DNA of 64,000 bases from a virus (taxonomy: Duplodnaviria > Caudoviricetes), in IMG/VR virus record IMGVR_UViG_3300032007_000001; one strand, given 5' to 3'. Below the pieces are notes generated by a model. The model saw only the letters and a list, made by a program, of their open reading frames with translations, was not told the DNA's origin and ran no database searches. The position numbers were made by a program, and so were the translations under genes. Positions 1,856 through 55,857 of this stretch are shown here, piece after piece (the stretch's first letter is position 1; every line of letters begins with the position of its first letter).

Positions 1856-2311
1856 TCATAATCCCAAATATAAAAGTTTTTTTGCTTTACAAGTTTTTAT
1901 ATTATCATCTATAAAATCCTGAATGAAAGTTGGAAAAGTAGTTATTCCTCCAGCAAATCCCTCATCGTATACATAGTGAATAGCTTTTGGTGATTCGTAT
2001 AAATCTCTTATGCTGTAAGTAACAGCATCATATCCGTAATATATATAAATTTTTGTTATTCCATTTCCATTTGATGGTCTATCATAATTTTTCCAATCAT
2101 TATCTATTCTTGATATATTTGAATATAATTCGTGAAATACTAAACAATCAATTAATGTTGGAATAAAACATTCTTGTATCTGTCTTCTTGTTGAATATAA
2201 GACTCTAGCCAAATCATTTCTATCGGCATCTGTCATATCTTCTTCCCATTGTTTTTCAAATTTATATTCTTGTTCTTTCAATTCAAAAAATTTTTTAAGA
2301 AGATTATTCAT
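1856..2311 (-). CDS. Hypothetical protein, C-terminal GL family
   Basis: 151-aa ORF ending LLYLGL. Confidence 0.7.
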   Translation of the reverse strand: MNNLLKKFFELKEQEYKFEKQWEEDMTDADRNDLARVLYSTRRQIQECFIPTLIDCLVFHELYSNISRIDNDWKNYDRPSNGNGITKIYIYYGYDAVTYSIRDLYESPKAIHYVYDEGFAGGITTFPTFIQDFIDDNIKTCKAKKLLYLGL

Positions 2312-2340
2312 ACACTATCACCAAGAATATTATATAAAAA

Positions 2341-2727
2341 TCAATGCGACATTGACATGAATTTATCAATAAATTCAAACGCTTCTCTTTCATTAACTTC
2401 TTTTTCTATAATTTCTTTTCTATAATTAGAAGCAAAAAATAAAGATATCATGTCTTCATAAATTTCTATTTCAAGATATCCAAAATTATTTTCTTTTTCT
2501 ATTTGAATAGTTTGATTTGCTGTGGGAAATATTTCTACTTCGCTATTCAATTGTCGTATAAATTTTTCTGTTTTTTCAATAATATCTATTGGTATTGGTT
2601 CTGCACCGTAACCATTCCAATTATATTTTAACGTTTTCATTTCGTTCAATCTTTTTAATGATTCTTCATGCATCATTATCATTCCTTTTTTACAGAAAAC
2701 CGCCACGCAGGCAGTGCGTGGCGGCAT
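2341..2727 (-). CDS. Conserved phage hypothetical protein (NWNGYGA motif); true start probably near 2680
   Basis: LKYNWNGYGAEPI motif; first residues of the track ORF fall in a terminator hairpin. Confidence 0.6.
   Translation of the reverse strand: MPPRTACVAVFCKKGMIMMHEESLKRLNEMKTLKYNWNGYGAEPIPIDIIEKTEKFIRQLNSEVEIFPTANQTIQIEKENNFGYLEIEIYEDMISLFFASNYRKEIIEKEVNEREAFEFIDKFMSMSH
2695..2724 (-). terminator. Intrinsic terminator downstream of tRNA-Arg
   Basis: 10-bp GC-rich stem CCGCCACGCA/TGCGTGGCGG followed by TTTT on the minus strand. Confidence 0.75.
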
Positions 2728-2784
2728 CTATAAAATAAAACAATAAAAGAAAGGAGAGAAAGAAAATTGTGGTATGAGAAATCT

Positions 2785-2859
2785 TGGCCTCCCTACATCG
2801 AATCGAACGATGATTAAGGGCTTAGAAGGCCCCTGTACTATCCATTATACTATAGGGAG
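2785..2859 (-). tRNA. tRNA-Arg (UCU)
   Basis: Cloverleaf CTCCCTA...TAGGGAG-G-CCA, anticodon loop CT-TCT-AA, GTTCGA T-loop. Confidence 0.92.
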
Positions 2860-2875
2860 TTATTCTTACATTTTT

Positions 2876-2903
2876 ATTTTATCATAAAAAAATGAAAAGT
2901 AAA
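2876..2903 (-). promoter_or_regulatory. Sigma70-like promoter for tRNA-Arg
   Basis: TTTACT-16-TAAAAT with TG extension. Confidence 0.5.
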
Positions 2904-3014
2904 TTATTTTTTTTAATTCAAATAATTTTCTTGCAAAAAATATATTATAATGTATAAAACAAATTATAAAAATTTTTACTTGTAGGTTATAATAAAACAA
3001 AAAAGAGTGATAAA

Positions 3015-3419
3015 ATGATAACATTTGAGACATTCGAACATAAAAATGTTGAATGCAAAACATTATTATCAACGCAAAAAACAATATATCAATATATTTG
3101 TAAATTTTCAATGTCATGCGAAACTCCATATCCGCATAGAACATTAAACCACTATAATGTAACGATTTATTTAAGTGATAATTTCAATTTAGCAATTACC
3201 ATTTATGATATTTTTTATGATGAATATGTATTGTCATTATCATCAGATAATATATTCGCTGAAAAAATAAATAAAAAAATGTTATTAAACGAAATCCAAG
3301 AAAATTGTTCTATAAATTGGATGATTAATAATATTGGAGCTAGTGTAATAGATGATTTAATGCAATGTTTAAGTATGTTTTTTGAACGTATAAACATTTT
3401 ACAAATAGCTGGATTATAA
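3015..3419 (+). CDS. Hypothetical protein, C-terminal GL family
   Basis: 134-aa ORF with RBS, ending ILQIAGL. Confidence 0.7.
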   Translation: MITFETFEHKNVECKTLLSTQKTIYQYICKFSMSCETPYPHRTLNHYNVTIYLSDNFNLAITIYDIFYDEYVLSLSSDNIFAEKINKKMLLNEIQENCSINWMINNIGASVIDDLMQCLSMFFERINILQIAGL

Positions 3420-3435
3420 TCATCAATAAATAAAT

Positions 3436-3464
3436 AAAAGAGCACTTAAGTGCTCTCATTTTTT
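3436..3464. terminator. Bidirectional terminator (GAGCAC type)
   Basis: AAAAGAGCAC-TTAA-GTGCTCT between a convergent gene and the tRNA operon. Confidence 0.7.
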
Positions 3465-3466
3465 CT

Positions 3467-3541
3467 TGGTAGTTCCAACGTGAATTGAACACGTATTTAG
3501 TCCTTGAAAGGGACTCGTCCTAACCATTAGACCATGGAACC
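3467..3541 (-). tRNA. tRNA-Glu (UUC)
   Basis: GGTTCCA...TGGAACT-A-CCA; anticodon arm AGTCC-CT-TTC-AA-GGACT. Confidence 0.92.
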
Positions 3542-3543
3542 AT

Positions 3544-4122
3544 TGGTGCCGAGGACCGGAATCGAACCGGTACGGTGTTGCCACCGAGGGATTTTCTTAC
3601 TACTCTTACTTATAGGGTGTTCAATCATCATATATCCTGGCCGCTCTTTACCCATTTCGTAAGCCATTCCACTAGAAACGTTGTAGTCCGGACTATGTTT
3701 TCACCATATATGATTTATCATCCATACTTAGGTGGTTGGTCTATAGTCTCTACACATTTACTATTAAAAGAAAATATATCACAGAAAGGAGGCTGCCTTC
3801 CAGAACACTGGAAATGTCTTATGTTGATTGTAAAAAACACTTAGATTTTTTAAGATCATATGTTCATCCATTTGTTTTGTGCTTTCGCAATTTCAATTAG
3901 AGAAGCGAACTAATTAAAATTACAAATGGCATTACAACATTTGACGTTTTCTTTTAATAGACTTAGCACGGCGTTCCCAATAATGCTTCACCGTTTTAGC
4001 CAACATTCACTCGAGATGTTTCCTGTCTCGGTGCTCAGACAATTATATTGTCTTGTTGAATTGTTGTGATTCAACAAATATTGGAAAAAGTCCCTTGCGT
4101 CTGCCAGTTCCGCCACCCCGGC
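3544..4122 (-). tRNA. tRNA-Leu (UAA) interrupted by a group I intron (exons 4122..4088 and 3595..3544)
   Basis: 5' exon GCCGGGGTGGCGGAACTGGCAGACGCAAGGGACTT joined to 3' exon AAAATCCCTCGG...GGTTCGATTCCGGTCCTCGGCACCA rebuilds AGGGA-CT-TAA-AA-TCCCT with a long variable arm. Confidence 0.92.
3596..4087 (-). ncRNA. Group I self-splicing intron (492 nt)
   Basis: Inserted after U34 and ends in terminal G; R element GTAGAGACTA (3744-3753) and S element AAAACATAGTCC (3690-3701) form P7. Confidence 0.88.
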
Positions 4123-4155
4123 ATATTCAGTTGTCAATGTACTCCAAACATTTAT

Positions 4156-4184
4156 ATTATAAAACAAAAAAAACACATTGTAAA
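4156..4184 (-). promoter_or_regulatory. Sigma70-like promoter of the tRNA-Leu/Glu operon
   Basis: TTTACA-17-TATAAT. Confidence 0.75.
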
Positions 4185-4225
4185 CATCGATTTATATAAA
4201 ATACAAAAATTTTGTAATTCATTGT

Positions 4226-4252
4226 AAAAAAGAGACTATATTGTCTCTTTTT
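4226..4252. terminator. Palindromic terminator after tail fibre gene
   Basis: AAAAAAGAGAC...GTCTCTTTTT. Confidence 0.65.
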
Positions 4253-4303
4253 ATTTTTAATGATTTTTTATCATAAACAAACCAAACAAATGTCTTAATA
4301 TTT

Positions 4304-5887
4304 TTAATCTGTTGTTTTTGTATATTGAATAGTAACATAAGATTTTGTGAAGTCAGAACTATCAGTAGTTCTTCCCATTAATTGAATAACAGCATTAGAT
4401 TGGTTTGAAAGCAATATAAATTGCACCGTAACATTTAAAGTTGTATAGTTGTCTTGTATCTTTGGTATACTTCTCCAATAGGGTTGACCAGAATTATAAT
4501 TATAGCAGATGCCTTTTATATCGATTATTTCCTTAACAATAGTTTTTTCTAAAGGTAAAGTTATTGTTTTTACTGTACTATTTGGTAATGCCCCACAATC
4601 AACTGTTATTTGATATATCGGCTTACCATCTATCCATGTACCTATTCTTTGTTCTTCTGTACTATAATTATTTTCTGGTGTAGATAATACTGATGTATTA
4701 TATTTAATGCAATATAATACAGAAGTATTTGTAGGACGGGAAGTATAGGCACGACGCACTTCAAAATTATCCGAACCAGTTGTAGTAGATGATTGCGCCC
4801 ATAATCTTCCCCCTGTGGTTTTAATAGCTTTATCTTCGGAAACTACAGCTAGTTTAGTTTCCGAAGTATTAACATCCATTTGTAATTTTGTTCCATTATA
4901 ATGAACATTAGGTATTTCAGTACCGTCTTGATGTACACCAACGTTACTCCCACTGCCTTGATTTGTGTGACTATTAGTCCCTGTGCCACGCAAAAATTCT
5001 CCGCGCAAATCTGGAACTGCAAAAGTGGTAGTTCCATCTCCACCAAAATAATTATAACTACCAAATTGTGCTTTAATATACTCTGCTAATTCTTTATAAT
5101 CTATTATATTATAGACTGTCCCGTCGCAAGCTAAATAATCTTTTGGAGCAGTATTACCCATATAAGAAATAACAGTTCCTATTGGAGTATCATTATAAAG
5201 AGTATTAGATGTATCTTTTCTATATTTTATCTGTGGTATTAATGTTATTGCTGGAGGTTGTACTGTATCTACTGAATCTGAATAGATAGAATTACTACTA
5301 TTTGCGCTAAATTTCATGTTCGTTTTATACTGCCCAGCACCGGTCGCTGTTGTAACTTGTTGGAGTTTCCCGACTGTTGCTGTGGCCTTAGAATTAGTAA
5401 ACGCGCCTGATTTTCCGCGAATATTTGCATCTTCTGACGATGGAGTTTCTAAAAACTCAGCAGACCCAAAATATTCGCCTTTTATATTAGGCAATCCTGC
5501 TTCTTTTTCTTCTACTGTACTACCACCTTGTAATACTAAATCTATATAATTTGGTAATGTTAATACATCTGTATTGCTATTATATTTGAATAAAGCTTTA
5601 TTAGAAGAATCATTAGTAATTAAATTATTATCTTGAGCATAATCTAATAATTCCTTATAATCTGTTGAAGCATCAGCTAAATTCGTACCATCTAATTTAA
5701 GATAGTCTCTTAATAGAGACATCTGCCAAGTTATATATCCAACCGGTGCATCTGATGCCACAACAGCACTAGATACATTAACATCTCCTAAATAATCATC
5801 TATATTATTTGACGTTAAATTTTTTACTACCTTAAATTTTGCAGAACCATAAGTTATAGTATCATTTAGCGCAGTCAATTTTTTCAC
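4304..5887 (-). CDS. Tail fibre protein with phage tail-collar domain
   Basis: PIGTVISYMG...YLACDG...FAVPDLRGEFLRG collar motif; IGTWIDGKPIY C-terminal module; N-terminus shared with 61697..63235. Confidence 0.85.
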   Translation of the reverse strand: MKKLTALNDTITYGSAKFKVVKNLTSNNIDDYLGDVNVSSAVVASDAPVGYITWQMSLLRDYLKLDGTNLADASTDYKELLDYAQDNNLITNDSSNKALFKYNSNTDVLTLPNYIDLVLQGGSTVEEKEAGLPNIKGEYFGSAEFLETPSSEDANIRGKSGAFTNSKATATVGKLQQVTTATGAGQYKTNMKFSANSSNSIYSDSVDTVQPPAITLIPQIKYRKDTSNTLYNDTPIGTVISYMGNTAPKDYLACDGTVYNIIDYKELAEYIKAQFGSYNYFGGDGTTTFAVPDLRGEFLRGTGTNSHTNQGSGSNVGVHQDGTEIPNVHYNGTKLQMDVNTSETKLAVVSEDKAIKTTGGRLWAQSSTTTGSDNFEVRRAYTSRPTNTSVLYCIKYNTSVLSTPENNYSTEEQRIGTWIDGKPIYQITVDCGALPNSTVKTITLPLEKTIVKEIIDIKGICYNYNSGQPYWRSIPKIQDNYTTLNVTVQFILLSNQSNAVIQLMGRTTDSSDFTKSYVTIQYTKTTD

Positions 5888-5920
5888 TCCTATACTTAAA
5901 AATCTGTCTCTTTATAAAAT

Positions 5921-5950
5921 AAAAGATAGACTGGAAATCCAGTCTATCTT
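5921..5950 (-). terminator. Intrinsic terminator
   Basis: AAGATAGACTGG/CCAGTCTATCTT stem. Confidence 0.7.
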
Positions 5951-5963
5951 GTTATCAATTAAT

Positions 5964-6119
5964 TTATTTTTTCATAAGTGCTTTTGAAATTAGACCTAAT
6001 CGTCTCTCTTTTTCTTTTTCTAATTTTTCCTTGTCTTTCAAAGCTTTTATAATATTTTCTTCAATAGGCAAACTGCTTATATGATTACCGTCTTTATCAT
6101 AAATTCCCAATTTTTTCAC
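5964..6119 (-). CDS. Small hypothetical protein (51 aa)
   Basis: GAGGT RBS + GTG; MKKLGIYDKDGNHISSLP...; below ORF-track cutoff. Confidence 0.5.
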   Translation of the reverse strand: MKKLGIYDKDGNHISSLPIEENIIKALKDKEKLEKEKERRLGLISKALMKK

Positions 6120-6289
6120 ACCTCAAAAATTAAATAGATTTACGCACTTCAAATTAAGAATAAATTTATTGAGTAAATCTATTTCAATGACCAGACATAA
6201 TGATTACCATATCTCTTATAAACATCAAAATGACCATCAAAACAAAAAATAAAATAATTACATTAAATTCGTATCTTGTAATCATTCAA

Positions 6290-6619
6290 TCACAATCCCT
6301 TTACAATCAAATTTATATTTTTCATTTTAGAAATACAATCGACAAATATTTTTGTATCATTTTTTATTTTGCATAAATCTTTGAACGAATTGCAAATAAA
6401 AGTGTTATTATAAGCATCAAATAACACAAACATATTATTAATCAAAAGATAGTTGGTAAATTGATTAAATAAAACTGAACACGTTTTTACAAACATATCA
6501 TCAATTTCGAAAACATATTGTTTTTCATTTTCTCTTATTTCTGAAATTATTTGTATAATATTAACATTTTCAACTTTATGTCTAACGCTTATATTAAAAG
6601 CTTCAAATGTATAATTCAT
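6290..6619 (-). CDS. Hypothetical protein, C-terminal GL family
   Basis: 109 aa ending LIVKGL; N-terminal TFExF as in 3015..3419. Confidence 0.65.
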   Translation of the reverse strand: MNYTFEAFNISVRHKVENVNIIQIISEIRENEKQYVFEIDDMFVKTCSVLFNQFTNYLLINNMFVLFDAYNNTFICNSFKDLCKIKNDTKIFVDCISKMKNINLIVKGL

Positions 6620-6646
6620 AATATTTCTAAAACAAAAAGATGAGAA

Positions 6647-7075: not shown

Positions 7076-7096
7076 TGTTTAACCCTCCTAAAAAAT

Positions 7097-7522
7097 TTAT
7101 AACCCCATAAAAATTGACTCGTCTCTATTGAAATCAATAGATTTGTCAATAAGAAAATCAAGAATTTCTTCTATAACATATGCATAATTATGCATAGATA
7201 AACAATAATCAACGTATGCTTTCTTTAGTTTTTTATAAAATCTTTTTTCGCCAATACTGCTAACTTCATAATCTTGATTAATCGAAAGAAAAAATGCATT
7301 GTTATTCAATGCATGACATAATGAAACACAAAACAAATTATCAAAAATATCTTTTATATTTGTTAAAGTAAAAAAACATAGATGGAATTTCTTAAAATTA
7401 TTTTCTATTGCGAATTGTTCTTCGACCATGAAATTTTTTGTTATTGTTGTTTTTGAATCCAACATCAAAACAGTTTTTCTATCTACAAAAAAATCAGATT
7501 CTAAATATTTCATGGATTTCAC
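7097..7522 (-). CDS. Hypothetical protein, C-terminal GL family
   Basis: 141 aa ending SIFMGL; own promoter. Confidence 0.65.
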   Translation of the reverse strand: MKSMKYLESDFFVDRKTVLMLDSKTTITKNFMVEEQFAIENNFKKFHLCFFTLTNIKDIFDNLFCVSLCHALNNNAFFLSINQDYEVSSIGEKRFYKKLKKAYVDYCLSMHNYAYVIEEILDFLIDKSIDFNRDESIFMGL

Positions 7523-7570: not shown

Positions 7571-8656
7571 CTATTCATTAACTTTCCAGCATTGTGGGTC
7601 TGGACTATAGAAATTCCCGTTTGTTCCACAAGACACCGCTGGACATCCACGACAGAATGCAAGTAATTTGCAATCTTTACATTTTTCAAATTTATCAAAA
7701 TCTCTATAGTAATTCATTTTATCTCCAAGCCAAACTTCAGAAATATCATCTGTTAAAGCATTTCCAACAACAGAATCATTAATTCTTCTGCATGCCAACA
7801 AATCTCCATTTGGCAAGATTGTCATATGTCCAATTCCACAATGACAACCCGTATATATCGTATCATCATTTTCTTCTACATAATTTGGAGCATCCAATCT
7901 TCCAATTTCATAATGGAATAAATTCCATAGATGGTCCTTATATCTAAAACTCGTTGTACATCCAACACTTTCATAAAAATCAAAACGGTCTTGCATTTCT
8001 TCCAAAAATTTTCTATATCTTTCTGGAGTCAATCTATTGCTTTTATCTTCATAAACTGGAACGTATCTAGAAAACGTAAATCTTCTAGCTTTCCAAGCAA
8101 CCTCATCTACAAGCGATGGAATTTCATCGATATTCTTATCACTGACTGTAGACATAATAACACTATATAAATCATTTCTATTCAAACATTTTAATGCTTC
8201 AAATGTAGCATCATAACTTCCAGGTTTTCTAAACCAGTCGTGCGTTTCTTTTAATCCATCTAAAGACAATTGATATTTAGTACATCCACTATCTTTTAAT
8301 TTTTCAGCAACTTCGTCAGTTAAATGGAATGGATTGCCAAGAATAATAAATTCAATTTTATTTTTCTTTAATTCTTTTATCAAGTCCCAAAAATTCTTAT
8401 GAAGTAACGGGTCTCCACCAGTAATAGCAAACACTGGTACTCTATGTAATTTTTTACACGAACTAATAACATTATTCAAAACTTTTTGCATATTATCCCA
8501 TGACATTTCTACAAGATTTTTGTTTCCGCCATGGAAAATATAACAATGCTTGCATCTTTGGTCGCAATTATCCGTAATGTGCCATTGAAAAGATAATCCC
8601 ATTCTTATACTATCATCATTAGTCCAAGATTTCCACATATTTATGCGGTCTAACAA
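7571..8656 (-). CDS. Radical SAM/SPASM peptide maturase, ACGX-system (AcgM)-like
   Basis: FQWHITDNCDQRCKHCYIF CxxxCxxC, TGGDP, full SPASM (CHCG...ACRR...CKDC...CRGCP...DPQCW). Confidence 0.85.
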   Translation of the reverse strand: MLDRINMWKSWTNDDSIRMGLSFQWHITDNCDQRCKHCYIFHGGNKNLVEMSWDNMQKVLNNVISSCKKLHRVPVFAITGGDPLLHKNFWDLIKELKKNKIEFIILGNPFHLTDEVAEKLKDSGCTKYQLSLDGLKETHDWFRKPGSYDATFEALKCLNRNDLYSVIMSTVSDKNIDEIPSLVDEVAWKARRFTFSRYVPVYEDKSNRLTPERYRKFLEEMQDRFDFYESVGCTTSFRYKDHLWNLFHYEIGRLDAPNYVEENDDTIYTGCHCGIGHMTILPNGDLLACRRINDSVVGNALTDDISEVWLGDKMNYYRDFDKFEKCKDCKLLAFCRGCPAVSCGTNGNFYSPDPQCWKVNE

Positions 8657-8701: not shown

Positions 8702-8731
8702 AAAACCCATCATTTTATTATGATGGGTTTT
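8702..8731 (-). terminator. Intrinsic terminator
   Basis: AAAACCCATCAT/ATGATGGGTTTT. Confidence 0.7.
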
Positions 8732-9119
8732 ATAATCCAAATCGAAATGGAAAATTGTTATTCAATTGCAAATAATTTTCTTTTATCCAAACTAAAATTT
8801 TTCTATTAATATCGCTTGTTTTATCATTTTTTATTTGATTATTTAATTTATTTTCAAATGAATTTTTATCATTAGTAATAATCCAAGCGCCATTAAAAAA
8901 TTTAATATTAAAAACATTTAATTTGTCATTCATTTCAAACAATGAATAAGAATACATATCATAAAGAAATACAAATGAATACATCCTTCTACAATTTCTT
9001 AAAATTTTTAAGTTACAAACAACTTCAATGCCTTCGCTTATTGTCTTAATAAACATAAAAACATTTATTGGAACAGTTGTGTGTTCTATTTTACTTTCCA
9101 ATGTTTTCACATCCCACAT
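8730..9119 (-). CDS. Hypothetical protein, C-terminal GL family
   Basis: 129 aa ending PFRFGL; DINRKILVWI resembles neighbour's DIQKNISNWV. Confidence 0.65.
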   Translation of the reverse strand: MWDVKTLESKIEHTTVPINVFMFIKTISEGIEVVCNLKILRNCRRMYSFVFLYDMYSYSLFEMNDKLNVFNIKFFNGAWIITNDKNSFENKLNNQIKNDKTSDINRKILVWIKENYLQLNNNFPFRFGL

Positions 9120-9514
9120 TTTTTGATAACATGAGTTTTTGCTTTATCTTTATCAAATATTAAATTATATCCTTTTTTCAAAACCCAATTACTTATGTTT
9201 TTTTGTATATCTGTTACATGATGATTGTGCTGTGTTAAAAGTTCTACATTTTCTAAAAAATCATCTTCATTTTTTCCTGATGTCGACCCTAAATCACAAA
9301 CATGACTAAAATTAAATATTTTATCGCTTACAAATAAAATCGAAATTATATCATCATGATTATAAAATTTTATTCTATGGCCAATTGAATAAAAAAAATC
9401 ATAAAAAATTTCATAAACACAAAAGTATGATACATTATCAATCGTTTGTAAAAAATTATTTTTGAAAACAACATTTTTATTATTAAAATCCAATTTAATC
9501 ACCCATAACAACAA
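9107..9514 (-). CDS. Hypothetical protein, probable paralog of 8730..9119 (ends GM)
   Basis: 135 aa ending IKKCGM. Confidence 0.6.
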   Translation of the reverse strand: MLLWVIKLDFNNKNVVFKNNFLQTIDNVSYFCVYEIFYDFFYSIGHRIKFYNHDDIISILFVSDKIFNFSHVCDLGSTSGKNEDDFLENVELLTQHNHHVTDIQKNISNWVLKKGYNLIFDKDKAKTHVIKKCGM

Positions 9515-15528: not shown

Positions 15529-16020
15529 TTAGCTTCCGCAATTTCCACAACTGCAGCTGCAACTGCATGAATAACTGCATTCCCGATAATTGCAATTATA
15601 ATATGTACAATCTTTACATTGTGTATAAGTACACTGGTTGCAATTTTTGCATTGAACCTGAGTTGCTGCGGCGTTTTCTGGTATTTCGTTTTTAATGTAA
15701 TCCTTAATTTCTTTATTTGTTGTAAATGTATTTATAATATTCGTTTTAATTGTTTCCAATGTTGATGGTTCATTTCCCAAAGCATTTACAATAGTATTTT
15801 TTGAAATTTCAAGGTCTTCAGAATTTGCTTCTATATTTTCCGAAAGTATATCACATAATTCATTTTCATTTTTTACTGTTTTATTCAATTCTTTCATATA
15901 ATCAGTCATATCTGCTATTTGGTCTACTTCAGTTTCGAAATGATGAGTATCAAACCCACTAGCAGAAGAATTTGGTAAATGCATCGTTGATTTTCTATTT
16001 GCCATTTTAATTCCTCTCAC
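15529..16020 (-). CDS. Cys-tailed protein paralog 1
   Basis: HHFETEVDQI domain + CKNCNQC..CKDC..CSYSCSCSCSCGNCGS tail. Confidence 0.85.
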   Translation of the reverse strand: MRGIKMANRKSTMHLPNSSASGFDTHHFETEVDQIADMTDYMKELNKTVKNENELCDILSENIEANSEDLEISKNTIVNALGNEPSTLETIKTNIINTFTTNKEIKDYIKNEIPENAAATQVQCKNCNQCTYTQCKDCTYYNCNYRECSYSCSCSCSCGNCGS

Positions 16021-18354: not shown

Positions 18355-19341
18355 TTAACTCCAAGGCAGATTTTTAAGTTTATCTGATAAACTTTGTATT
18401 CTTCCAGAAGAAAATCTTTGGTTTTGTTCATTAATTATCTTATTATCTTGTGTATGCAGATACATATTTGTATGTACACTGTGAGCAGTCAATCCAGCAA
18501 CTCTTTCCATTATTTTGGCTTCTCTATCTGCACCAGTTGTGACAATAGATGTTTCGAAGAATTCTGGATTGATATTATATTCCATGACTGGTAACATTTC
18601 GCCATTGAATGACATTGTCATGCCCTTGTAGTTTCTAATATGTTCGCACATGTTTTCTTCTGTAGTGCATTCATTACCACAAATAGAGCATATTGATTTT
18701 TCTACAGTGCATCCCATAGAAACGTCAGTAATCATTTGTGTACGTAATGCTTTTGCCAATTCTGGGAAAGCTACCTTATCAATAGCAAAAAGAATTTCTA
18801 CTAAATATTTATCAGGATTATAGACAACATCTAATATAATGCCTCTTGCATCTTCTACATTTTCGTTGTTATGGTCAACGAAAATTGATTTGCCGCGAAG
18901 CGTTTCAAATGGGCCATTCAGTTGTTCATAATTTAATTTCTTGCCAGTAGCGGCTTCGCAGGTTTTATCATTTGTAAGATGTTCATGCATAAAAGCATCG
19001 CCATTGTCATTGCTATTTCTGCAATACTTTGAATATTTTGCTAAATTTTTCTGATAAGTCTCAAAAGGAATCAATTCATAACTTCCATCTTCGTGCTCTA
19101 TAACGTTACCAGACGTTAATGCTACAGCACGATGATATTGGAAGTCATTTTCTTTTGGAGCAACCTGTATTACTTTCCCAGCTGTTTTTACCATAGCTGG
19201 GTCAATTAATGTTTTAGATTGCTTAAGTATATCCATTCTTAAGTTATGGTAATCTTTTAAAAGGCCTTCATACTTGTTAGCTTCTATTTTACCACGTATG
19301 TTTTTCTTTGTTATCAAGTATGACACCTCCATCCTCGTCAC
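18355..19341 (-). CDS. Prohead (capsid maturation) protease
   Basis: NDNGDAF, FVDH, VSMGC catalytic-type motifs with CSICGN..CEHI zinc finger; downstream of portal. Confidence 0.75.
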   Translation of the reverse strand: MTRMEVSYLITKKNIRGKIEANKYEGLLKDYHNLRMDILKQSKTLIDPAMVKTAGKVIQVAPKENDFQYHRAVALTSGNVIEHEDGSYELIPFETYQKNLAKYSKYCRNSNDNGDAFMHEHLTNDKTCEAATGKKLNYEQLNGPFETLRGKSIFVDHNNENVEDARGIILDVVYNPDKYLVEILFAIDKVAFPELAKALRTQMITDVSMGCTVEKSICSICGNECTTEENMCEHIRNYKGMTMSFNGEMLPVMEYNINPEFFETSIVTTGADREAKIMERVAGLTAHSVHTNMYLHTQDNKIINEQNQRFSSGRIQSLSDKLKNLPWS

Positions 19342-28909: not shown

Positions 28910-29398
28910 ATGAATAATTGGATTAATAATATAGACGAAAACAATATAAAAGTAAAACGTTACTGCAAACAATGCCATAAGCCGATGGTTTATGTTGACA
29001 AAAATAATCACATGATATATAAAAATCATGATGACATTTGCAGTTTTTGTTATGATAAAAAATATCTATTATTTATTGATGATTATTATGTGTTAGGCAA
29101 AGATTTTGATATTGATGTAACAAAAATAAGAATAAGTATTAGGCATGCATTATCGGGTTATCATACGAGAAGCGGATATAAGATAGTTATATATTTTTAT
29201 GATAATAGTGAAAAAAATTGGTATATATCATTTTTATTTAAGTTTGAAGAATTAATTAAGCTAACATATAATCAATTGATTGAATATAGAAATAAAAACA
29301 AATACGATATATTAAACGATAAATTTATAAAATATTTATATGATTGTTCTGAAGAAACATTTAATAAATACGACTTAAAAATGTATATTGGATTGTAA
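28910..29398 (+). CDS. Hypothetical protein, C-terminal GL family, N-terminal CxxC..CxxC
   Basis: CKQC...CSFC; ends KMYIGL. Confidence 0.65.
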   Translation: MNNWINNIDENNIKVKRYCKQCHKPMVYVDKNNHMIYKNHDDICSFCYDKKYLLFIDDYYVLGKDFDIDVTKIRISIRHALSGYHTRSGYKIVIYFYDNSEKNWYISFLFKFEELIKLTYNQLIEYRNKNKYDILNDKFIKYLYDCSEETFNKYDLKMYIGL

Positions 29399-44293: not shown

Positions 44294-45076
44294 TCAATAA
44301 CCATAGAATTGCCTTTGAATATTCTCAACATTTTTTGTAATATATATATCTTTAATTTCTGTTTTGTCCATTGTGAGAATACAAAGATTCATAAAAGCAA
44401 AGAACACACCAGCAAATGCATGATAAAGTTTTCCCATATCTATCTTATCATTTGGTTTCTTCCAATGTTTCCAAGAAATTTGTTGTCTTACTAGAGCACA
44501 CATATCGGATAAACTACATACTGCTTTTAAGATAGATAAATCATAATTGTTATCTAATTTAAGAAAATTTTTAATACCATAGTGTTGGAATTCGTACGAA
44601 ATGTCCAACAAATCTCCTTTGTCTGTTATTTCAAAACGTTTGCGATAAGCTTGCTCTATTTCTTTCGCAGACGCATTACCACAAATGAACATATCCATAA
44701 CAAAATGAAGAATGTCAATAACTTCTTTTTTAAGTTCTTCTTTATTATTTACTTTTGGTTCTGCATAAATATTTAAGTATTCTCTAATTTCTCTTATTTC
44801 ATCTTCTATGCATACAAGATATCTATCAATCCAATGGTCCATTTCTTCTTTATTGATATTGTTTATATCGTGAAAACGAGATTCAAATTTTTGTTGCATT
44901 GAAAAAATAAGTTCCCATGCAGGAAGAGATGTATTGAAATGATTTGATGTTAAAATTTCATTGACTTTTCTTGGGTCGCTGGCATCTTTATAAGCAAAGA
45001 ATTTTGGACACGGACATTTGATATCTTCACATTTCTTTTCAAGATACGGACAATCTTTTTTGTTGAAATCACTCAT
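44294..45076 (-). CDS. Dimeric (all-alpha) dUTPase
   Basis: EDEIRE, KEVIDILHF, WKHWKK, YITKNVENIQRQ motifs. Confidence 0.8.
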   Translation of the reverse strand: MSDFNKKDCPYLEKKCEDIKCPCPKFFAYKDASDPRKVNEILTSNHFNTSLPAWELIFSMQQKFESRFHDINNINKEEMDHWIDRYLVCIEDEIREIREYLNIYAEPKVNNKEELKKEVIDILHFVMDMFICGNASAKEIEQAYRKRFEITDKGDLLDISYEFQHYGIKNFLKLDNNYDLSILKAVCSLSDMCALVRQQISWKHWKKPNDKIDMGKLYHAFAGVFFAFMNLCILTMDKTEIKDIYITKNVENIQRQFYGY

Positions 45077-50280: not shown

Positions 50281-50293
50281 TTCCTAAAAATTT

Positions 50294-50542: not shown

Positions 50543-50606
50543 ATTTACACCTCTCTAATTACAATGTCATATTTTTACTCAAATTCAAAATAAAAGAATT
50601 TGATAA

Positions 50607-51212
50607 ATGAATTACATGAAAATAAAAAAACTTTTTTGGGTGTATATTTCGCTTAAAAAATATTATTTTATTTTTGAGTTCAATAAAAGAGGTGATTATG
50701 TTTTGCCTACTAAAAATATAGTTCCTCGCGCTGATGGTGAGGGAGGATTTGGAAGAGTAGATAAACCATGGGGAAGTATTTATGCAAATGATATTCCTTA
50801 TATGAGTGAGCATGTAAATATTCATAATTCAACTCCCGAATCAACACATATTGAAGGTATTAGTGGAAACGCCGCGTCGGCATCTGGGTTCTATAATCCA
50901 GTTAGAATTAATACAATTTTGTTTAGAGGGGACGAGGATATAAGCATTCCATTAGCAAATGAAAATTTTATGGATGCACAAGATGTTATAGATGCATGGA
51001 ATACTGTATGGGAAGCAAATATCGAAACTGTATCATTAATACAATCTCCAACCGTAACAGATACAAACAATGCTATTGTTGTATCTGATGTTGATGCGAC
51101 ATCAGATGTTCAACATGCAGATGTAGTTATTACAGATAGCGGAACTACACTAACAGATTGTATTGGTAGAGTATCTTTAAGCGATGGTTCAACAATACAA
51201 ATTAATTTATAA
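50607..51212 (+). CDS. Short fibre-module protein (modules B+C); start probably 50703
   Basis: TKNIVPRADGEG paralog of 49966..50280; C-terminal DSGTTLT like 49488..49952. Confidence 0.65.
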   Translation: MNYMKIKKLFWVYISLKKYYFIFEFNKRGDYVLPTKNIVPRADGEGGFGRVDKPWGSIYANDIPYMSEHVNIHNSTPESTHIEGISGNAASASGFYNPVRINTILFRGDEDISIPLANENFMDAQDVIDAWNTVWEANIETVSLIQSPTVTDTNNAIVVSDVDATSDVQHADVVITDSGTTLTDCIGRVSLSDGSTIQINL

Positions 51213-51236
51213 AAAATTATAAAGGGTGATAAATAA

Positions 51237-53186
51237 ATGTTAGCGAATCTTGCTCAAATTAAAGGCGGTTTGAAATTACGCGAAGATGTTGATTCTTTAC
51301 TTAATTTTCAACGTCAATTAAGTGCAACTCAGATTATTACAACGATTGTAAAGGATGATACTACAAATCCTGTTACAAATTGGAACGTTGATGATATCTT
51401 AAAAGCTATTATCGATAGTTCAGAAATTGATGGTGCTAATAAGGTTACTCTTGCAACATTAAATACTGCTTTAAGCAATTTCAAGGATAAGCAAATTAAA
51501 GACGTTGTTAGAGTACAACTTGCTGCCGTAAAAGAAGAAGAACCTAATGAAGGTTTTACTGTAGATGTAACCGGTGTTGATTCCGGATTAAAGGTGGCAG
51601 CAAACGATGCACTCCCAGTTTATACTACAGACGGTAGAGTTGTTTATGCTGATGCTGGTATTACTCAATTAACCATTAACCTTTCAACTGGCGCATTCCC
51701 AGTTGGTGCCGTTCCTCAGGTTATGGTTGATAATACAGCCGATAGAACACAAAATGAAACCGAAGTTGGTGTTACTCATTATACAGCTTTAGATGATGAC
51801 TTCAATTTCAAGGTTTTCGCAACTGGTACATTTACATTAAATACATTACCAACAGACGCATTACTTGATAATCAGGAAATGCAGTCACTCGCTTATGACC
51901 AAGCAATTGATAAGATTGTATTGAAGTTGGCTTCTGACGAAGATATTATTGCTTCAATTTCAGCTTTGGTTGGTCAAACAGCCGTTCAACAACAGATTGA
52001 AAGTGTAACAAATACATTATATAGATATTCCGCTATTCAAGGTACTCCTGCAGTTGAAGAAAGCGGCACTGAAGGAGAAGACGATTACGTTGCTCCAGTT
52101 GCTGCTGAAACGATTACAGCTAATACTCATGTTTATTCAGCAAATAGAGTTGACCAGTTAATTACTGCGGCAACTGCTCATTCAAATGCCGAAATTGATA
52201 AAAAGCATAATTTCGCAGCAATTAATACGGCTGTTGCAGCTGAAGAAATTGCAGTTGTAAGCACGATTGGTCAAGTTGATTATGTTGCTCCTCAGGCTGC
52301 CGTTGTACAAGAAGCTCCAGCAAATGCAAACACTCCGGTAGATTCAAGTGCAGTCGTAACTTCTAAGATTAATGCTGCTATTAAAGCATCTCTTGAAGAT
52401 GTATCTGCTGCTATTTACGCTGTTGATGCAAAAACTTATGATTTTGCACACATTGTTGGCGCGCAGTCTGTAGCTGCTGTTGGCGAAGAAGGACAACCTG
52501 GTTATGTAGCCGCCGTTCCAGCAGAAACAGTAACAGAGACTACAGCGGTATATTCAAAAGCAGCTGTTGACCAGTTATTCTCTGGCGTTGCTGGTCAAAT
52601 TTCGGATGCATTAACTACTACAGTTAAACTGACACAATTAGTTGGTGGCGCACAACAACTTGGCGAAGATGGCGTAACCGTAACGCGTGCAGCAGAACAA
52701 ATTTCTCAGAGCACACAGGTTTATACGAAACAGGCCGTTGATGACGCAATCGAAGCCGCAACTGGCGATATGCTTACAAATGCTCTTGCATATTCGCAGG
52801 AAAATGCTGCTCGTATTGATGCGGTACAAACTGCATGTGTACCTGTTATTGATGAAATTGCAATTTCTAGTGCAAGCGCTGTAACTTCATTTAACTTAAC
52901 GGCTACTCCAAATGCTACAAAAGTTAAGATGTTCATCAATGGTGCAACGTATTGGGAAGGCGAGGAATTTACAGTTGACCGCACAAACAATACCGTTGCT
53001 TGGACATTCACTGCTCAAACAAATCTTGACGGCACTCCAGTTAGCGGACATGAAGAAGGCGTTGATGGATTTACGATTACAAATGCTCTTACAAATAAGG
53101 TTCGTTTCGAATATTACACCGGTACATTTGTAACACGTACAGTTCCAGTTCCAACACCAGCTTCTCCAGAACCGTCCGGAGACTAA
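51237..53186 (+). CDS. Abundant fibre-like virion protein with internal repeats
   Basis: Four G.EG..DYVA..AE....VYS..VD repeats; C-terminal KMFING domain; expressed-type codon bias. Confidence 0.65.
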   Translation: MLANLAQIKGGLKLREDVDSLLNFQRQLSATQIITTIVKDDTTNPVTNWNVDDILKAIIDSSEIDGANKVTLATLNTALSNFKDKQIKDVVRVQLAAVKEEEPNEGFTVDVTGVDSGLKVAANDALPVYTTDGRVVYADAGITQLTINLSTGAFPVGAVPQVMVDNTADRTQNETEVGVTHYTALDDDFNFKVFATGTFTLNTLPTDALLDNQEMQSLAYDQAIDKIVLKLASDEDIIASISALVGQTAVQQQIESVTNTLYRYSAIQGTPAVEESGTEGEDDYVAPVAAETITANTHVYSANRVDQLITAATAHSNAEIDKKHNFAAINTAVAAEEIAVVSTIGQVDYVAPQAAVVQEAPANANTPVDSSAVVTSKINAAIKASLEDVSAAIYAVDAKTYDFAHIVGAQSVAAVGEEGQPGYVAAVPAETVTETTAVYSKAAVDQLFSGVAGQISDALTTTVKLTQLVGGAQQLGEDGVTVTRAAEQISQSTQVYTKQAVDDAIEAATGDMLTNALAYSQENAARIDAVQTACVPVIDEIAISSASAVTSFNLTATPNATKVKMFINGATYWEGEEFTVDRTNNTVAWTFTAQTNLDGTPVSGHEEGVDGFTITNALTNKVRFEYYTGTFVTRTVPVPTPASPEPSGD

Positions 53187-53196
53187 TATAAATAAC

Positions 53197-53224
53197 AAAG
53201 GAGGTTCTTTTATGAACCTCCTTT
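53197..53224 (+). terminator. Intrinsic terminator
   Basis: AAAGGAGGTTC/GAACCTCCTTT. Confidence 0.75.
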
Positions 53225-53238
53225 AATTATATAAAAAG

Positions 53239-53502
53239 GTGATTAGTTTGAACGTTTCGTTTAGTAAAAAAACGTATTTTATAATTGGATTTTTAGTAAC
53301 AATAATTGGAACAATGATATTCCAAAATTTATTATTAGGAATAGCCATAGGTTTTGTTATTGGTGCTATAAAAGTAATTAAAGATAAGATGTTATATAAT
53401 TTCTTTGATATAAAAATTATGTTGACAACTTTGTTAGGCAGTTTATTTGCTATAGTAATTATGTATTTATGTATTGTATCAACGTTAATTAACTTTGGAT
53501 AA
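53239..53502 (+). CDS. Small three-TM membrane protein
   Basis: Hydrophobic segments throughout. Confidence 0.6.
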   Translation: MISLNVSFSKKTYFIIGFLVTIIGTMIFQNLLLGIAIGFVIGAIKVIKDKMLYNFFDIKIMLTTLLGSLFAIVIMYLCIVSTLINFG

Positions 53503-53534
53503 GAGAAAATATTAAAGAGCTAAGATAAAAAGTC

Positions 53535-54026
53535 TTAGCTCTTTATTTCATATAAAACGATTTTATTGTTTTTTAATGATTCTTGTACATTTATTATTCT
53601 TTGATTTTTTGACCCTTTAAATTGAAGTGATATATCTCTTTGTTCTACAATAAATTTTCCATCTACTAATACATCAATATATTTTAGCATTTCATATTTG
53701 TCTTTATCTTTTAAGAGTTCTTCAAAATCATATCCAGTATAAGCCCATATATTATATTTCTCGTGTACTTTTTTTACTAATGAAAGTAATTCTATAGATT
53801 GTTCAAATGGGTCTCCTCCTGAAAGTGTCAGACCATCTAAAAGAGGATTTTGTTCCATTAATGTATAAATGCTTTCTGGTGAATATAAATGATTATATTC
53901 AAAACTCCAGGTTTCTAGATTTTGGCATTCTTTACAATGATGCTTGCATCCTTGACAAAATATTACTAATCTGATACCTTCACCATCGACTATTGATTCT
54001 TCTACTATATCATATACATTAATCAT
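53535..54026 (-). CDS. nrdG: Anaerobic ribonucleotide reductase activating protein
   Basis: ESIVDGEGIR..FCQGCKHHCKECQN, LSGGDP, DVLVDGKF, FKGSKNQRII. Confidence 0.93.
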   Translation of the reverse strand: MINVYDIVEESIVDGEGIRLVIFCQGCKHHCKECQNLETWSFEYNHLYSPESIYTLMEQNPLLDGLTLSGGDPFEQSIELLSLVKKVHEKYNIWAYTGYDFEELLKDKDKYEMLKYIDVLVDGKFIVEQRDISLQFKGSKNQRIINVQESLKNNKIVLYEIKS

Positions 54027-54535
54027 TTAATTGTCACCTGACAACTTTTCATCACTTTTAATGCTGCATTATGATTTGGTTTTGTTGTTCCAGCACAACA
54101 TTTTTTGTCAATAATAATTTCTTTTTCTGGATAAAACATCTTAAGCATCAATGCATTTGCTATTACGCAAATATCAGTACATACTCCAATTAATTCGATG
54201 CTATCATAATCTTTTGTAAGAGTAACAAGAGAAAATCCACCAAAAGTATCTTTCTCTGCTATATATTTTGCTTTTCCTAAGAATTCTGCCAATTGCGGAA
54301 TGATATGCCAACCTTTTGTGTCTTTAATACAATGCTCAATTGGAAGATTTTTTCCTTCTTGTGTTTTAAGATAATCTTTATCGTGTGTGTCCATTGTAAA
54401 AATTAAATCTTTTTTATTTTTCTTTAATTTTATTATAATCTTTGGTACAATTAATTCAGCGTCTTTATTTGCTAATGAACCAGTAACAAAATCATTTTGC
54501 ATATCAACAATAATAAGTACTTCTTTTTTCCCCAT
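54023..54535 (-). CDS. pncA: Nicotinamidase / isochorismatase-family cysteine hydrolase
   Basis: IVDMQNDF, TMDTH, HCI, KDTFG, GVCTDICV. Confidence 0.82.
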   Translation of the reverse strand: MGKKEVLIIVDMQNDFVTGSLANKDAELIVPKIIIKLKKNKKDLIFTMDTHDKDYLKTQEGKNLPIEHCIKDTKGWHIIPQLAEFLGKAKYIAEKDTFGGFSLVTLTKDYDSIELIGVCTDICVIANALMLKMFYPEKEIIIDKKCCAGTTKPNHNAALKVMKSCQVTIK

Positions 54536-54536
54536 T

Positions 54537-54869
54537 TTATTCTCCCCATTCCAAAATAAATTTTTCTACAAACAAATCAAATAATATTTCATATTTTTTC
54601 ATATCAAAATTAAAATCTTTTCCAGTAAGACATCTATTTGACTTTATTTCAAAAATAAAGTCTCTTTTTTTATAAATGCATATATCAAATATATATATTT
54701 TTTCTTTTTCTAAAAAAATAAATGGTTTTATTTCTCTATTAAAAGAGAAACCGAAACTATCCTTAAATGCTTCTGCTAACCAAGTAGCTTCTGATTCTTT
54801 ATCAAATTTATTAAATAATACCATCATTTCTATTGAATCATTATGTGATTCACACATTTTTATTTTCAT
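54537..54869 (-). CDS. Hypothetical protein
   Basis: 110-aa ORF in operon. Confidence 0.6.
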   Translation of the reverse strand: MKIKMCESHNDSIEMMVLFNKFDKESEATWLAEAFKDSFGFSFNREIKPFIFLEKEKIYIFDICIYKKRDFIFEIKSNRCLTGKDFNFDMKKYEILFDLFVEKFILEWGE

Positions 54870-54871
54870 GG

Positions 54872-55339
54872 TTAATGATTGTTTTGATAAATGATAATTG
54901 TGCCATTTTCATATTCGTTTTTTATAAAAACAGAATCTCTATCCATTTCGGCTTCTAAAATTCCGCCATCATCTCCAAATTCACCTTGGAAAAAATGTTT
55001 GCCTTTAAGTTTTTCAAATAATTCTTTGCTTTTTTTCTCTGCATATTTTAATGATTCTTCTTCTTTTTCTTCGTAACTTAATGGAACATCATAATCCCAA
55101 ACTGGAGAACTATATTTACGATGTTCAATAATTTCTTTTTTAGCCGTTTCTTCATCTATTTCGCTTAAATAATTTTTTAATAAATTTTTTAAGCATTCAA
55201 ATTCATTGTCTACTTGCGTATATCGTGGATAAACATCGTCCTTTAATTCATTTTCAATAAAATCGTCAAAATTATTATTTGTAGCAATAATATAAGAACT
55301 AGAACTTGAATTTGTAACAAAATCTTTTCTAATTTTCAT
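54872..55339 (-). CDS. TNSSS-motif protein
   Basis: MKIRKDFVTNSSSSSYII. Confidence 0.85.
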   Translation of the reverse strand: MKIRKDFVTNSSSSSYIIATNNNFDDFIENELKDDVYPRYTQVDNEFECLKNLLKNYLSEIDEETAKKEIIEHRKYSSPVWDYDVPLSYEEKEEESLKYAEKKSKELFEKLKGKHFFQGEFGDDGGILEAEMDRDSVFIKNEYENGTIIIYQNNH

Positions 55340-55353
55340 TGTTTACACTCCAA

Positions 55354-55668
55354 TCAATTTACAATTACTGGCCTTGGCATTTTCGCTGGAATTTCAACGT
55401 TTTGCGTAAAAGTATTTTTCGTTACTTTACCTTTGAATTCTTTATTTGGCGCTGGAGAAATTGAAGTAATTCCAGACTTGAATGCCAAACTAACTCCATT
55501 TTTCCCAAGCAATTGAATTGTAAACTGGTCAAATGATACTATCTTTCCAATTAAGTATCTTCCATCTGTAAAATTAATTTGTACTTTTTCATTTTTTGTT
55601 CTTAAATCATTTAAAAATTTGTCTTGCGAACGATGACCTTGATTAGCGACTTCTACTTGTACTGCCAT
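55354..55668 (-). CDS. hfq: RNA chaperone Hfq homolog
   Basis: QDKFLNDLR...G..LIGKIVSFDQFTI...FKSGITSISP (Sm1/Sm2). Confidence 0.82.
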   Translation of the reverse strand: MAVQVEVANQGHRSQDKFLNDLRTKNEKVQINFTDGRYLIGKIVSFDQFTIQLLGKNGVSLAFKSGITSISPAPNKEFKGKVTKNTFTQNVEIPAKMPRPVIVN

Positions 55669-55683
55669 AACTTTCTTCCTTTC

Positions 55684-55857
55684 TTACAAACCATACTTTA
55701 AGTAAAAGCGTTTTCTTATAGATTTATTGAAAAATTTTTTAATGAAGCTATAAGATTCTTTTTTACATGATAAAAATTGATTTTCAAATTTTTCTTTTCC
55801 ATGAGATTCTATTAAATGTAAAACAGCAATGTGAGTACTATTAAATCCATCTTCCAT
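55684..55857 (-). CDS. Small protein, C-terminal GL family (possibly the frameshifted 3' part of 55860..56129)
   Basis: Manual translation MEDGFNSTHIAVLHL...RKRFYLKYGL (57 aa). Confidence 0.55.
   Translation of the reverse strand: MEDGFNSTHIAVLHLIESHGKEKFENQFLSCKKESYSFIKKFFNKSIRKRFYLKYGL

Follow-up and report, generated by a model that had tools for sequence, protein, structure and literature searches.

A constant glycine-hydrophobic C-terminal end in one gene in six of a cattle-gut megaphage

About 120 genes (17% of ORFs, or one gene in six) in a 504,279-bp cattle-gut phage genome related to Bacillus phage G encode small proteins that end in glycine followed by a hydrophobic residue, most often leucine (GL). 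The proteins are typically 85-130 aa long and most of their genes lie in tandem arrays close to both ends of the 504-kb genome. We consider it somewhat probable (roughly 55%) that the set is one clade-specific, massively expanded and fast-diverging accessory family in which the C-terminal end is constant, and that the genes in the window, a 64,000-nucleotide part of this genome, are dispersed members of it.

The original prediction named eight small proteins in the window with such an end and judged GL ends to exceed what residue frequencies suggest. All eight C-termini translate as it gave them (Table 1), and the excess was confirmed by counting. Seven of the 90 ORFs in the window (greedy ORF set) end in GL (binomial P = 4e-8 against a frequency of 0.0036 for GL dipeptides within proteins), and genome-wide 82 of 704 ORFs do so compared to 2.5 expected (P = 1.8e-93). 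Glycine occupies position -2 in 154 ORFs compared to about 22 ORFs for any one position from -3 to -8, and 121 of the 704 ORFs end in glycine plus a hydrophobic residue. The excess is limited to this combination (Leu 82, Tyr 14, Phe 12, Val 5, Met 3, Ile 2). The motif was at the true end of the chain in 89 cases and was followed by 1-8 extra residues in three. In contrast, none of the 677 ORFs of phage G, which has the same GC content and was treated with the same ORF caller, ends in GL (Fisher P = 9e-26).

In the window, a ninth, GY-ending member was absent from the first list, and all nine proteins stop directly after hydrophobic-Gly-Leu/Phe/Tyr/Met. These members are small ORFans with neither a Pfam domain nor a phage G homologue. 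Likewise, the GL proteins as a whole lack Pfam domains and homologues in phage G; their homologues are limited to close relatives, where the end is kept. Genes are referred to below by the first coordinate, which is the start for the two + strand genes (3015 and 28910) and the stop for the others.

Table 1. Window genes encoding proteins with the Gly-hydrophobic end.
Coordinates	Strand	Product	C-terminal end	Basis and remarks
1856..2311	-	151-aa ORFan protein	...KKLLYLGL	Translation; no Pfam family
3015..3419	+	134-aa ORFan protein	...NILQIAGL	Translation; no Pfam family
6290..6619	-	109-aa ORFan protein	...NLIVKGL	Translation; no Pfam family
7097..7522	-	141-aa ORFan protein	...ESIFMGL	Translation; no Pfam family; GTG start (ORF list)
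8730..9119	-	129-aa ORFan protein	...NFPFRFGL	Translation
9107..9514	-	135-aa ORF	...VIKKCGM	Translation; TTG start (uncertain); Gly-Met tail variant
28910..29398	+	162-aa zinc-ribbon GL family member	...KMYIGL	BLAST cluster, alignment A2
55684..55857	-	57-aa ORF	...RFYLKYGL	Translation
55860..56129	-	89-aa ORF	...FVINLGY	Ninth member, adjacent to the 57-aa gene

Paralogue pairs in the Gly-hydrophobic families have their last two residues in common in 69-78% of cases, compared to about 10% in other paralogue families of the same genome. Orthologues or close variants of five window proteins also keep the end: the orthologue of 1856 (P0016, 84% identical) keeps the last 10 residues, the end of 3015 is kept in P0029 and P0030 and that of 6290 in P0032, the Gly-Leu of 8730 is kept in P0033 (…FRIGL) and P0034, and the orthologues of 28910 keep KMYIGL. 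A profile of array family A (…FYPL..Y….GL) matched only 13 proteins among 1.84 billion representatives. Eleven of these are small and full-length (86-111 aa), and every one has a GL or GF end; a fragment of 70 aa and a weak match, spread over several stretches of a 1179-aa protein, make up the rest.

The original interpretation is partly supported. The expectation of an expanded, very fast-evolving set with highly divergent bodies held, at about 120 genes genome-wide rather than eight. With the tails removed, weak matches run from GL protein to GL protein far above expectation, profile scores against family A are higher in G-hydrophobic proteins (P = 4e-5), and structural neighbours are held in common (see below); however, 56 of the 82 GL proteins are singletons by BLAST and 40 by the sensitive phmmer. 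Iterative profiles of GL proteins stall at nine members. The alignments of two GL families, A2 and A3, gave an hhalign probability of 0.07%, and family A against the window bodies, tail removed, gave at most 0.6% for all members. Seven of the eight window proteins have no sequence link to any GL family, and the argument for their descent is therefore limited to the tail and the size class. The remaining one, 28910, belongs to a zinc-ribbon family (CxxC...CxxC, then sheet, two helices and tail) in which C19, C22, C44, C47, G161 and L162 are invariant in alignment A2. Its paralogues lie at 119.7-123 kb of the genome, and two of them carry a four-residue insertion just before GL. None of the other seven window proteins matched this family.

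AlphaFold models of 28910 and of one array-type member, both of moderate confidence (pLDDT 69 and 75, the latter for 28910), agree with the beta-rich then helical layout that had been predicted: both families are modelled with an N-terminal four-stranded sheet followed by helices. Of their top 50 PDB neighbours, drawn from 48,161 chains, these two sequence-unrelated GL families have 17 in common, matched over the same ranges of each chain (e.g. 1fiq_B 415-528, 3hrd_G 181-292 and 5o2c_A 407-496); the matches are weak (Z 5-6, noise range). From the models, the two families appear to have one fold. The array-type model predicts a last helix (89-95) that ends exactly one residue ahead of the glycine, followed by G96 and L97, whereas the last nine residues of the 28910 model are non-helical and of low confidence.

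Ahead of the end, the set has in common a basic, amphipathic, helix-like stretch with helix periodicity and a depletion of Gly and Pro. In a leave-one-out profile of positions -15 to -3, its mean score was +1.35 compared to -7.96 for other proteins (P = 3e-22), and positions -6 and -3 are both hydrophobic in 50% compared to 17% of other proteins. The window set was intermediate, all eight proteins scoring above the median of other proteins (group P = 6e-4). Only 9107 and 55684 exceeded the 95th percentile, 9107 at the 96th percentile of non-Gly proteins and 55684, the highest in the window set, at the 98th. The Schellman loop, with its X-x-x-X-G-X 'hydrophobic triangle', is the commonest alpha-helix C-cap (PMC9951308, there citing Aurora and Rose 1998). 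Like this loop, the GL tail has glycine at C' (-2) and hydrophobics at C3, Ccap and C'' (-6, -3 and -1), and it fits an ordinary helix-closing glycine cap, which needs no partner. The cap sequence pattern is present in 1856, 3015, 9107 and 55684. The GL tail differs from the Schellman loop in that the chain always stops at C'', that nothing but the cap is invariant among more than 100 paralogues, and that the preceding helix is probably absent in some members (the 28910 family and 8730). The cap geometry is not universal, because the tail of the 28910 model is non-helical, two of its paralogues carry insertions before GL, and 8730 has Pro at -6, which makes a helical tail unlikely in that protein.

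In the expanded-family reading that we favour, one ancestral fold would lie behind the set, with sequence similarity lost and fold and tail kept. We infer support for such descent from the tandem arrays and the narrow size class. The tail would form a Schellman-type glycine cap, its last residue folding back on the hydrophobics at -3 and -6, and most likely would also serve as a constant handle for a shared, putative partner; this role is suggested because the tail is the only element that stays constant while the bodies diversify. The variable bodies may meet different targets, possibly in the host. The leading candidate for the partner is the phage's own ClpX, because the loop residues that read C-terminal tags are lost from it; against this reading, phage G also has a ClpX yet no GL tails. 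In jumbo phages and giant viruses, small accessory or host-takeover genes have undergone lineage-specific expansion, although our literature search found no specific paper on such expansions. The present set resembles them in its tandem small ORFan paralogues near the genome ends, its extreme divergence and its restriction to one clade, and differs in the identical two-residue end in one gene in six. Phage G, the nearest cultivated relative, has no counterpart of the GL set.

In this half-megabase phage, one gene in six carries an invariant two-residue end on bodies that have diverged beyond recognition, a pattern as in effector repertoires, where one handle is constant and the rest is varied. 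If the handle has a reader, its identification would give more than 100 uncharacterized proteins a common logic at once, and could reveal a phage-specific C-terminal recognition code. If it is only a helix cap, the set would still be striking as an explosive expansion of a gene family in a megaphage, with no counterpart in phage G, and would be a useful marker of the clade.

We weighed this reading against several others. A cause at the level of nucleic acid or translation (Shine-Dalgarno, start-stop coupling, or a terminator or promoter element), or a role as radical SAM/SPASM substrates, is scarcely credible. The start of the next gene overlaps 18 GL genes by 4 nt (ATGA), the terminal glycine shows some preference for GGA and GGG (83% compared to 67% in internal Gly-Leu), and radical SAM genes adjoin three window GL genes, including 1856 (beside a radical SAM/SPASM gene at 627-1772) and 7097 (directly downstream of a second one at 7571-8656). 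However, the 82 GL genes use all four terminal Gly codons (GGA 51, GGG 17, GGT 10, GGC 4) and all six Leu codons (TTA 48, TTG 17, CTA 8, CTT 6, CTG 2, CTC 1), TGA, TAA and TAG all occur as stops after GL, and the downstream DNA differs from gene to gene. Because the terminal codons are varied and the downstream DNA differs between genes, the end is selected at the protein level, as the original prediction had proposed from the unconserved downstream DNA. On this codon diversity, the nucleic-acid explanation appears largely refuted. In addition, the GGR bias is the same with or without a close following gene (82% vs 74%, P = 0.36), and separate ribosome-binding sites are visible downstream of GL genes. 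The window GL proteins were rejected as radical SAM/SPASM substrates since the co-location is not conserved (in the related contig G001, the enzyme gene is kept at 67% identity but has no GL neighbour) and most GL genes are nowhere near a radical SAM gene. MinD and FtsA are targeted to the membrane by an amphipathic C-terminal helix. A similar targeting to the host membrane would suit tails that are basic and aromatic/aliphatic, with a raised hydrophobic moment at 90-100 degrees of 1.01 compared to 0.81 in other proteins, but is very improbable: the final helix of the array-type model has only about 7 residues, after a conserved Pro, and the invariant glycine would be left unexplained. We also regard as unlikely that the end is purely structural, an inherited Schellman helix cap with no partner and no signalling role. 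The commonest helix C-cap pattern (PMC9951308), the modelled helix ahead of G96 and L97, and the helix periodicity with its Gly and Pro depletion all speak for it. Yet caps are usually replaceable, whereas more than 100 proteins, otherwise diverged beyond recognition, have no invariant element other than this one; next to no member has even one residue after it, and Gly-Leu is kept in probably non-helical tails and despite indels just before it.

Alternatively, the end could be a portable C-terminal tag or degron, independently acquired by unrelated proteins and read by one reader, which is a real possibility though not a probable one. Candidate readers are a host factor, an AAA ATPase, and a remodelled phage ClpX, which would work as an unfoldase or together with host ClpP; the outcome would be timed protein removal or adaptor use. 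GL is the only invariant feature over sequence-unrelated proteins, the chain stops exactly one residue past the glycine in nearly all, and the end survives indels just before it and non-helical-looking tails. The zinc-ribbon GL array has an AAA gene (PF00004) directly upstream. The phage also encodes a full ClpX (425 bits; zinc domain, GYVG and IGF loop), in which Gly, Lys and Thr align with Thr199, Arg228 and His230 of the E. coli protein; phage G ClpX keeps TRDV and GGRKHP. Thr199 and His230 contact the Ala-Ala-COO- end of ssrA, a tag that is not read by human ClpX, in which both residues differ (PMC7652416). Against a portable tag, no GL-ending protein has a recognisable domain, and the tag would thus never be found on a known fold; one fold apparently common to two sequence-unrelated GL families favours descent; and the tail is compatible with a helix cap that is self-contained. 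For ClpX, the link is a correlation from a single genome pair, whose ClpX proteins have only 41% identity and are no nearer to each other than to bacterial ClpX, and the phage gave no match to ClpP (PF00574). Quite unlikely is a private targeting system in which the altered ClpX would read hydrophobic-Gly-Leu-COO- on about 120 phage proteins; a large, diversifying host-directed repertoire would then be cleared on schedule or act as adaptors bringing host targets to an unfoldase or protease.

Several known systems resemble the GL end in part. Like the ssrA degron (PMC7652416), it is short and C-terminal, its last residues are non-polar and its carboxylate is free, and the phage has a ClpX. The GL end differs in closing with Gly-Leu or Gly-Met and not Ala-Ala-COO-, on which ground an ssrA-like ClpX degron was rejected; the phage also lacks ClpP, and its ClpX lacks Thr199, Arg228 and His230 and would therefore read a different end, if any. 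The IGF/IGL loops of Clp ATPases dock in ClpP pockets. They have the same aliphatic-Gly-Leu/Phe tripeptide pattern; however, they are internal AAA+ loops, whereas here the pattern is at the free C-terminus of small non-ATPases, and a ClpP-docking IGF loop was rejected because the GL proteins have no ATPase domain and the phage no ClpP. PDZ class II ligands end in hydrophobic-x-hydrophobic-COOH. GL ends fit this pattern, and the phage, checked for the PDZ_2 (PF13180) and S41 tail-specific protease (PF03572) models only, matched neither. In SspB, a short C-terminal peptide docks on ClpX. By analogy, many different bodies could dock on an unfoldase through the same short peptide at their C-termini; however, the GL proteins show no sequence similarity to SspB, and the phage has about 120 of them compared to a single adaptor. 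SspB is described as an adaptor tethering to ClpX (PMC9963277).

The original prediction also gave several of the window genes their own sigma70-like promoters. This was not confirmed, promoter-like matches being at chance level (64 found compared to 60.6 +/- 7.1 in shuffles). Terminator-like hairpins follow 1856 (1815-1796) and 3015 (3439-3456), and a terminator-like hairpin with a T-run, missing from the consensus scan list, lies directly downstream of 8730. The 55684 gene is tightly packed between its neighbours.

The window covers positions 385438-449437 of one 504,279-bp contig (29.7% GC), and carries genes for a portal, a tail-collar protein, a helicase and two radical SAM/SPASM proteins. 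The portal shares 61.5% identity with its counterpart in Bacillus phage G, whose genome is 497,513 bp, and because of this sequence match the source genome is classified as that of a phage-G-like megaphage. The window and genome sequences differ at one base, position 18625 (C in the window, T in the genome).

ORFs of at least 50 aa were called greedily and without overlap, giving 704 ORFs that covered 92% of the genome. All eight small ORFs originally singled out, named 1856, 3015, 6290, 7097, 8730, 9107, 28910 and 55684 by window coordinate, translated with the C-termini first read for them. Gly-Leu (GL) ends were found on 82 of the 704 ORFs compared to 2.5 predicted from the internal Gly-Leu dipeptide frequency (P = 1.8e-93), and on 7 of the 90 ORFs in the window (P = 4e-8). 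The excess over residue frequencies, at first a rough judgement, is thus borne out by the terminal-dipeptide count. Glycine occupied position -2 in 154 ORFs compared to ~22 at each neighbouring position, and the residues in excess after it were exclusively hydrophobic (L 82, Y 14, F 12, V 5, M 3, I 2), with Gly-polar ends at the same level as in phage G. When ORFs were called identically on the complete phage G genome, none of 677 ended in GL, which excludes an AT-rich or ORF-caller artefact and, with the binomial test, chance. The GL-end phenomenon is therefore real, highly non-random and genome-wide. Window features that bear on the set, and two ATPases elsewhere in the genome, are listed below.

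Coordinates of features in the window and in the whole phage genome (G000)
Feature	Location	Strand	Remarks
Further member, 89 aa, ends NLGY	window 55860-56129		absent from the original list
dUTPase_2 enzyme	window 44294-45076		GY end unrelated to the set; phage G orthologue also ends GY
Radical SAM/SPASM genes	window 627-1772 and 7571-8656	- / -	each adjoins GL genes
tRNA-Arg(TCT) and tRNA-Glu(TTC)	window 2785-2859 and 3467-3541	-	on either side of GL gene 3015-3419
163-aa ORF	window 15529-16020	-	Cys-Ser repeat at end, …SCSCSCSCGNCGS
ClpX, full-length	G000:C1:151795-152988	-	locus L059; 425 bits vs 370.75-bit cut-off
Classic AAA (PF00004) ATPase, 355 aa	G000:C1:123031-124098	-	directly upstream of zinc-ribbon GL array

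At the terminal positions, each of the four glycine codons and each of the six leucine codons is represented, and none of the three stops goes unused. The DNA 3' of the GL genes differs from gene to gene, as had been noted for the window. Because codons and stops vary and the downstream DNA diverges, the constraint acts on the protein, in agreement with the original prediction. In GL genes, 83% of the terminal Gly codons are GGA or GGG, compared to 67% of internal Gly codons before Leu and 48% of all Gly codons. This excess showed no dependence on how far away the following gene lies and is therefore not a ribosome-binding-site effect; the equal bias of genes that have a near downstream neighbour and genes that lack one, together with the codon diversity, rules out a DNA, ribosome-binding-site or coupling cause. 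The sigma70-like promoters ascribed to several of these genes received no support, since promoter-like sites were at chance level (64 compared to 60.6 +/- 7.1 in shuffled sequence). Terminator-like hairpins were enriched (14 compared to 2.2 in shuffled sequence) and lie after at least genes 1856 and 3015, by which some GL genes are predicted to end transcription units.

The 121 proteins ending in Gly plus a hydrophobic residue (the G-hydrophobic set) are small, with length quartiles of 97, 109 and 128 aa, and their genes cluster at 0-56 kb, 100-130 kb and 450-500 kb of the genome, largely in head-to-tail arrays. None of the 82 GL proteins had a BLAST homologue in phage G, compared to 112 of the other proteins. 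Pfam and PHROGs gave no match for the eight window proteins or ten array members, and a Pfam search of the whole G-hydrophobic set found no domain in any of the 82 GL proteins, the matches being confined to GV- and GY-ending housekeeping enzymes. When the largest GL family, the array family (family A), was run as a profile against 1.84 billion cluster representatives, only 13 proteins were retrieved: one truncated fragment, one long protein that matched weakly, and otherwise proteins of the phage itself or of close relatives, all ending in GL or GF. Orthologues or close variants of 1856, 3015, 6290, 8730 and 28910 all retain the end, which at 82-95% identity is weak evidence; stronger evidence is that family A homologues at or below ~50% identity retain it too. 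Among the sequences bearing orthologues are two ENA/Logan contigs, of 20.8 kb (P0020) and 11.3 kb (P0012). Within this genome, the last two residues were the same in 69-78% of paralogue pairs of G-hydrophobic families compared to ~10% in all other paralogue families. Searches of viral contigs for loci related to 1856, 28910, ClpX and the protein P0005, and of metagenome contigs for loci related to the protein P0015, found none, and we found no report of the motif in the literature on jumbo phages.

The protein bodies are as divergent as first described: 56 of the 82 GL proteins were singletons by BLAST and 40 remained so by sensitive phmmer. Iterated profile searches within the genome stalled at nine members. 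By hhalign, the zinc-ribbon GL family (28910 and its paralogues at 119.7-123 kb of the genome; alignment A2) had no profile similarity to family A (alignment A3; probability 0.07%), and the window protein bodies scored at background against the family A profile. Despite this fragmentation, there are signs of a common origin in the sequences. With tails removed, the weak matches of GL proteins fell on other GL proteins far above the 15% share expected; G-hydrophobic proteins scored higher than others against the family A profile (P = 4e-5); and leave-one-out scoring of positions -15 to -3 revealed a common pattern (P = 3e-22), with the window set intermediate (P = 6e-4). AlphaFold modelled an array member (97 aa, pLDDT 68.6) as four strands followed by three helices, and 28910 (162 aa, pLDDT 75.1) as a zinc ribbon, a sheet and then helices. 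Both models match the beta-rich-then-helical order that had been proposed and support a common layout of the two families. When the whole array model and residues 53-162 of the 28910 model were each compared with 48,161 PDB chains, 17 of their top 50 neighbours coincided, over the same chain ranges, e.g. xanthine oxidase 415-528, nicotinate dehydrogenase 181-292 and WNK CCT domains. The neighbour Z-scores of 5-6 (maximum 5.9) are in the noise range and too low for naming a fold; only the overlap of the lists was used, and it suggests that the two families are built alike. Foldseek found no significant match in PDB or BFVD, and an ESM Atlas search with 1856 gave no usable match.

Our preferred reading, to which we give a probability of about 0.55, is that the GL set is a single family of small accessory proteins that is specific to its clade and has diversified explosively. 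The C-terminal end would stay constant in this family as a predicted glycine-capped helix, which probably doubles as a shared handle. The last ~18 residues have helix periodicity with few Gly and Pro, and 50% of GL proteins are hydrophobic at both -6 and -3 compared to 17% of others. Adding Gly at -2 and Leu at -1 gives the X-x-x-X-G-X pattern of the Schellman loop with hydrophobic triangle, which is the most frequent helix C-cap (PMC9951308), and the final helix of the array-type model (89-95) is followed by G96 and L97. A purely structural cap, which these features would allow, is a less likely alternative. Not every member suits a cap: the last nine residues of the 28910 model form a low-confidence coil, two 28910 paralogues have a four-residue insertion immediately before GL, and 8730 has Pro at -6. 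The tail-like motif occurred with 1-8 extra residues in 3 cases compared to 89 at the true end, by a profile that was not leave-one-out.

A convergent portable tag read by an altered ClpX or another candidate factor is likewise a less likely alternative, about as probable as the purely structural cap. The phage ClpX, a candidate partner of the end, has the zinc domain, GYVG pore loop and IGF loop, but aligned to E. coli ClpX it has Gly for Thr199 and Lys-Asn-Thr for Arg228-Lys229-His230, whereas phage G ClpX retains the canonical TRDV and GGRKHP. The ssrA tag ends in Ala-Ala-COO-, with which Thr199 and His230 make contact; human ClpX, which differs at both positions, does not read this tag (PMC7652416). 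Since these ssrA-contacting residues are replaced, the C-terminal tag specificity of ClpX is probably changed in the GL-bearing phage and canonical in the GL-free phage G. This correlation is a single genome comparison between ClpX proteins that are only 41% identical, and the search for a closer ClpX yielded only phage matches of ~43% identity, none sharing the altered loops by close kinship. ClpP, S41 tail-specific protease and PDZ_2 had no match in the phage. The AAA ATPase has five zinc-ribbon GL/GF paralogues directly downstream on the same strand and lacks an evident orthologue in phage G. Upstream of the ATPase gene is one resembling CCA-adding/poly(A) polymerase genes.

A related viral contig, G001 (68 kb), has a portal ~76% identical and carries mostly structural genes. 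Five of its 87 ORFs have a G-hydrophobic end, a modest rise over the rate in phage G (P = 0.007). The contig retains the window's radical SAM gene without a GL neighbour, and the radical SAM-GL adjacency is thus not conserved there. The portal match in G001 extends over 2494 nt for 556 residues (L035:10001-12494; G001 59888-62435) and is split into two ORFs of 80 and 485 aa with ~850 nt between them. This arrangement suggests an intron, intein or mobile insertion in the portal gene.
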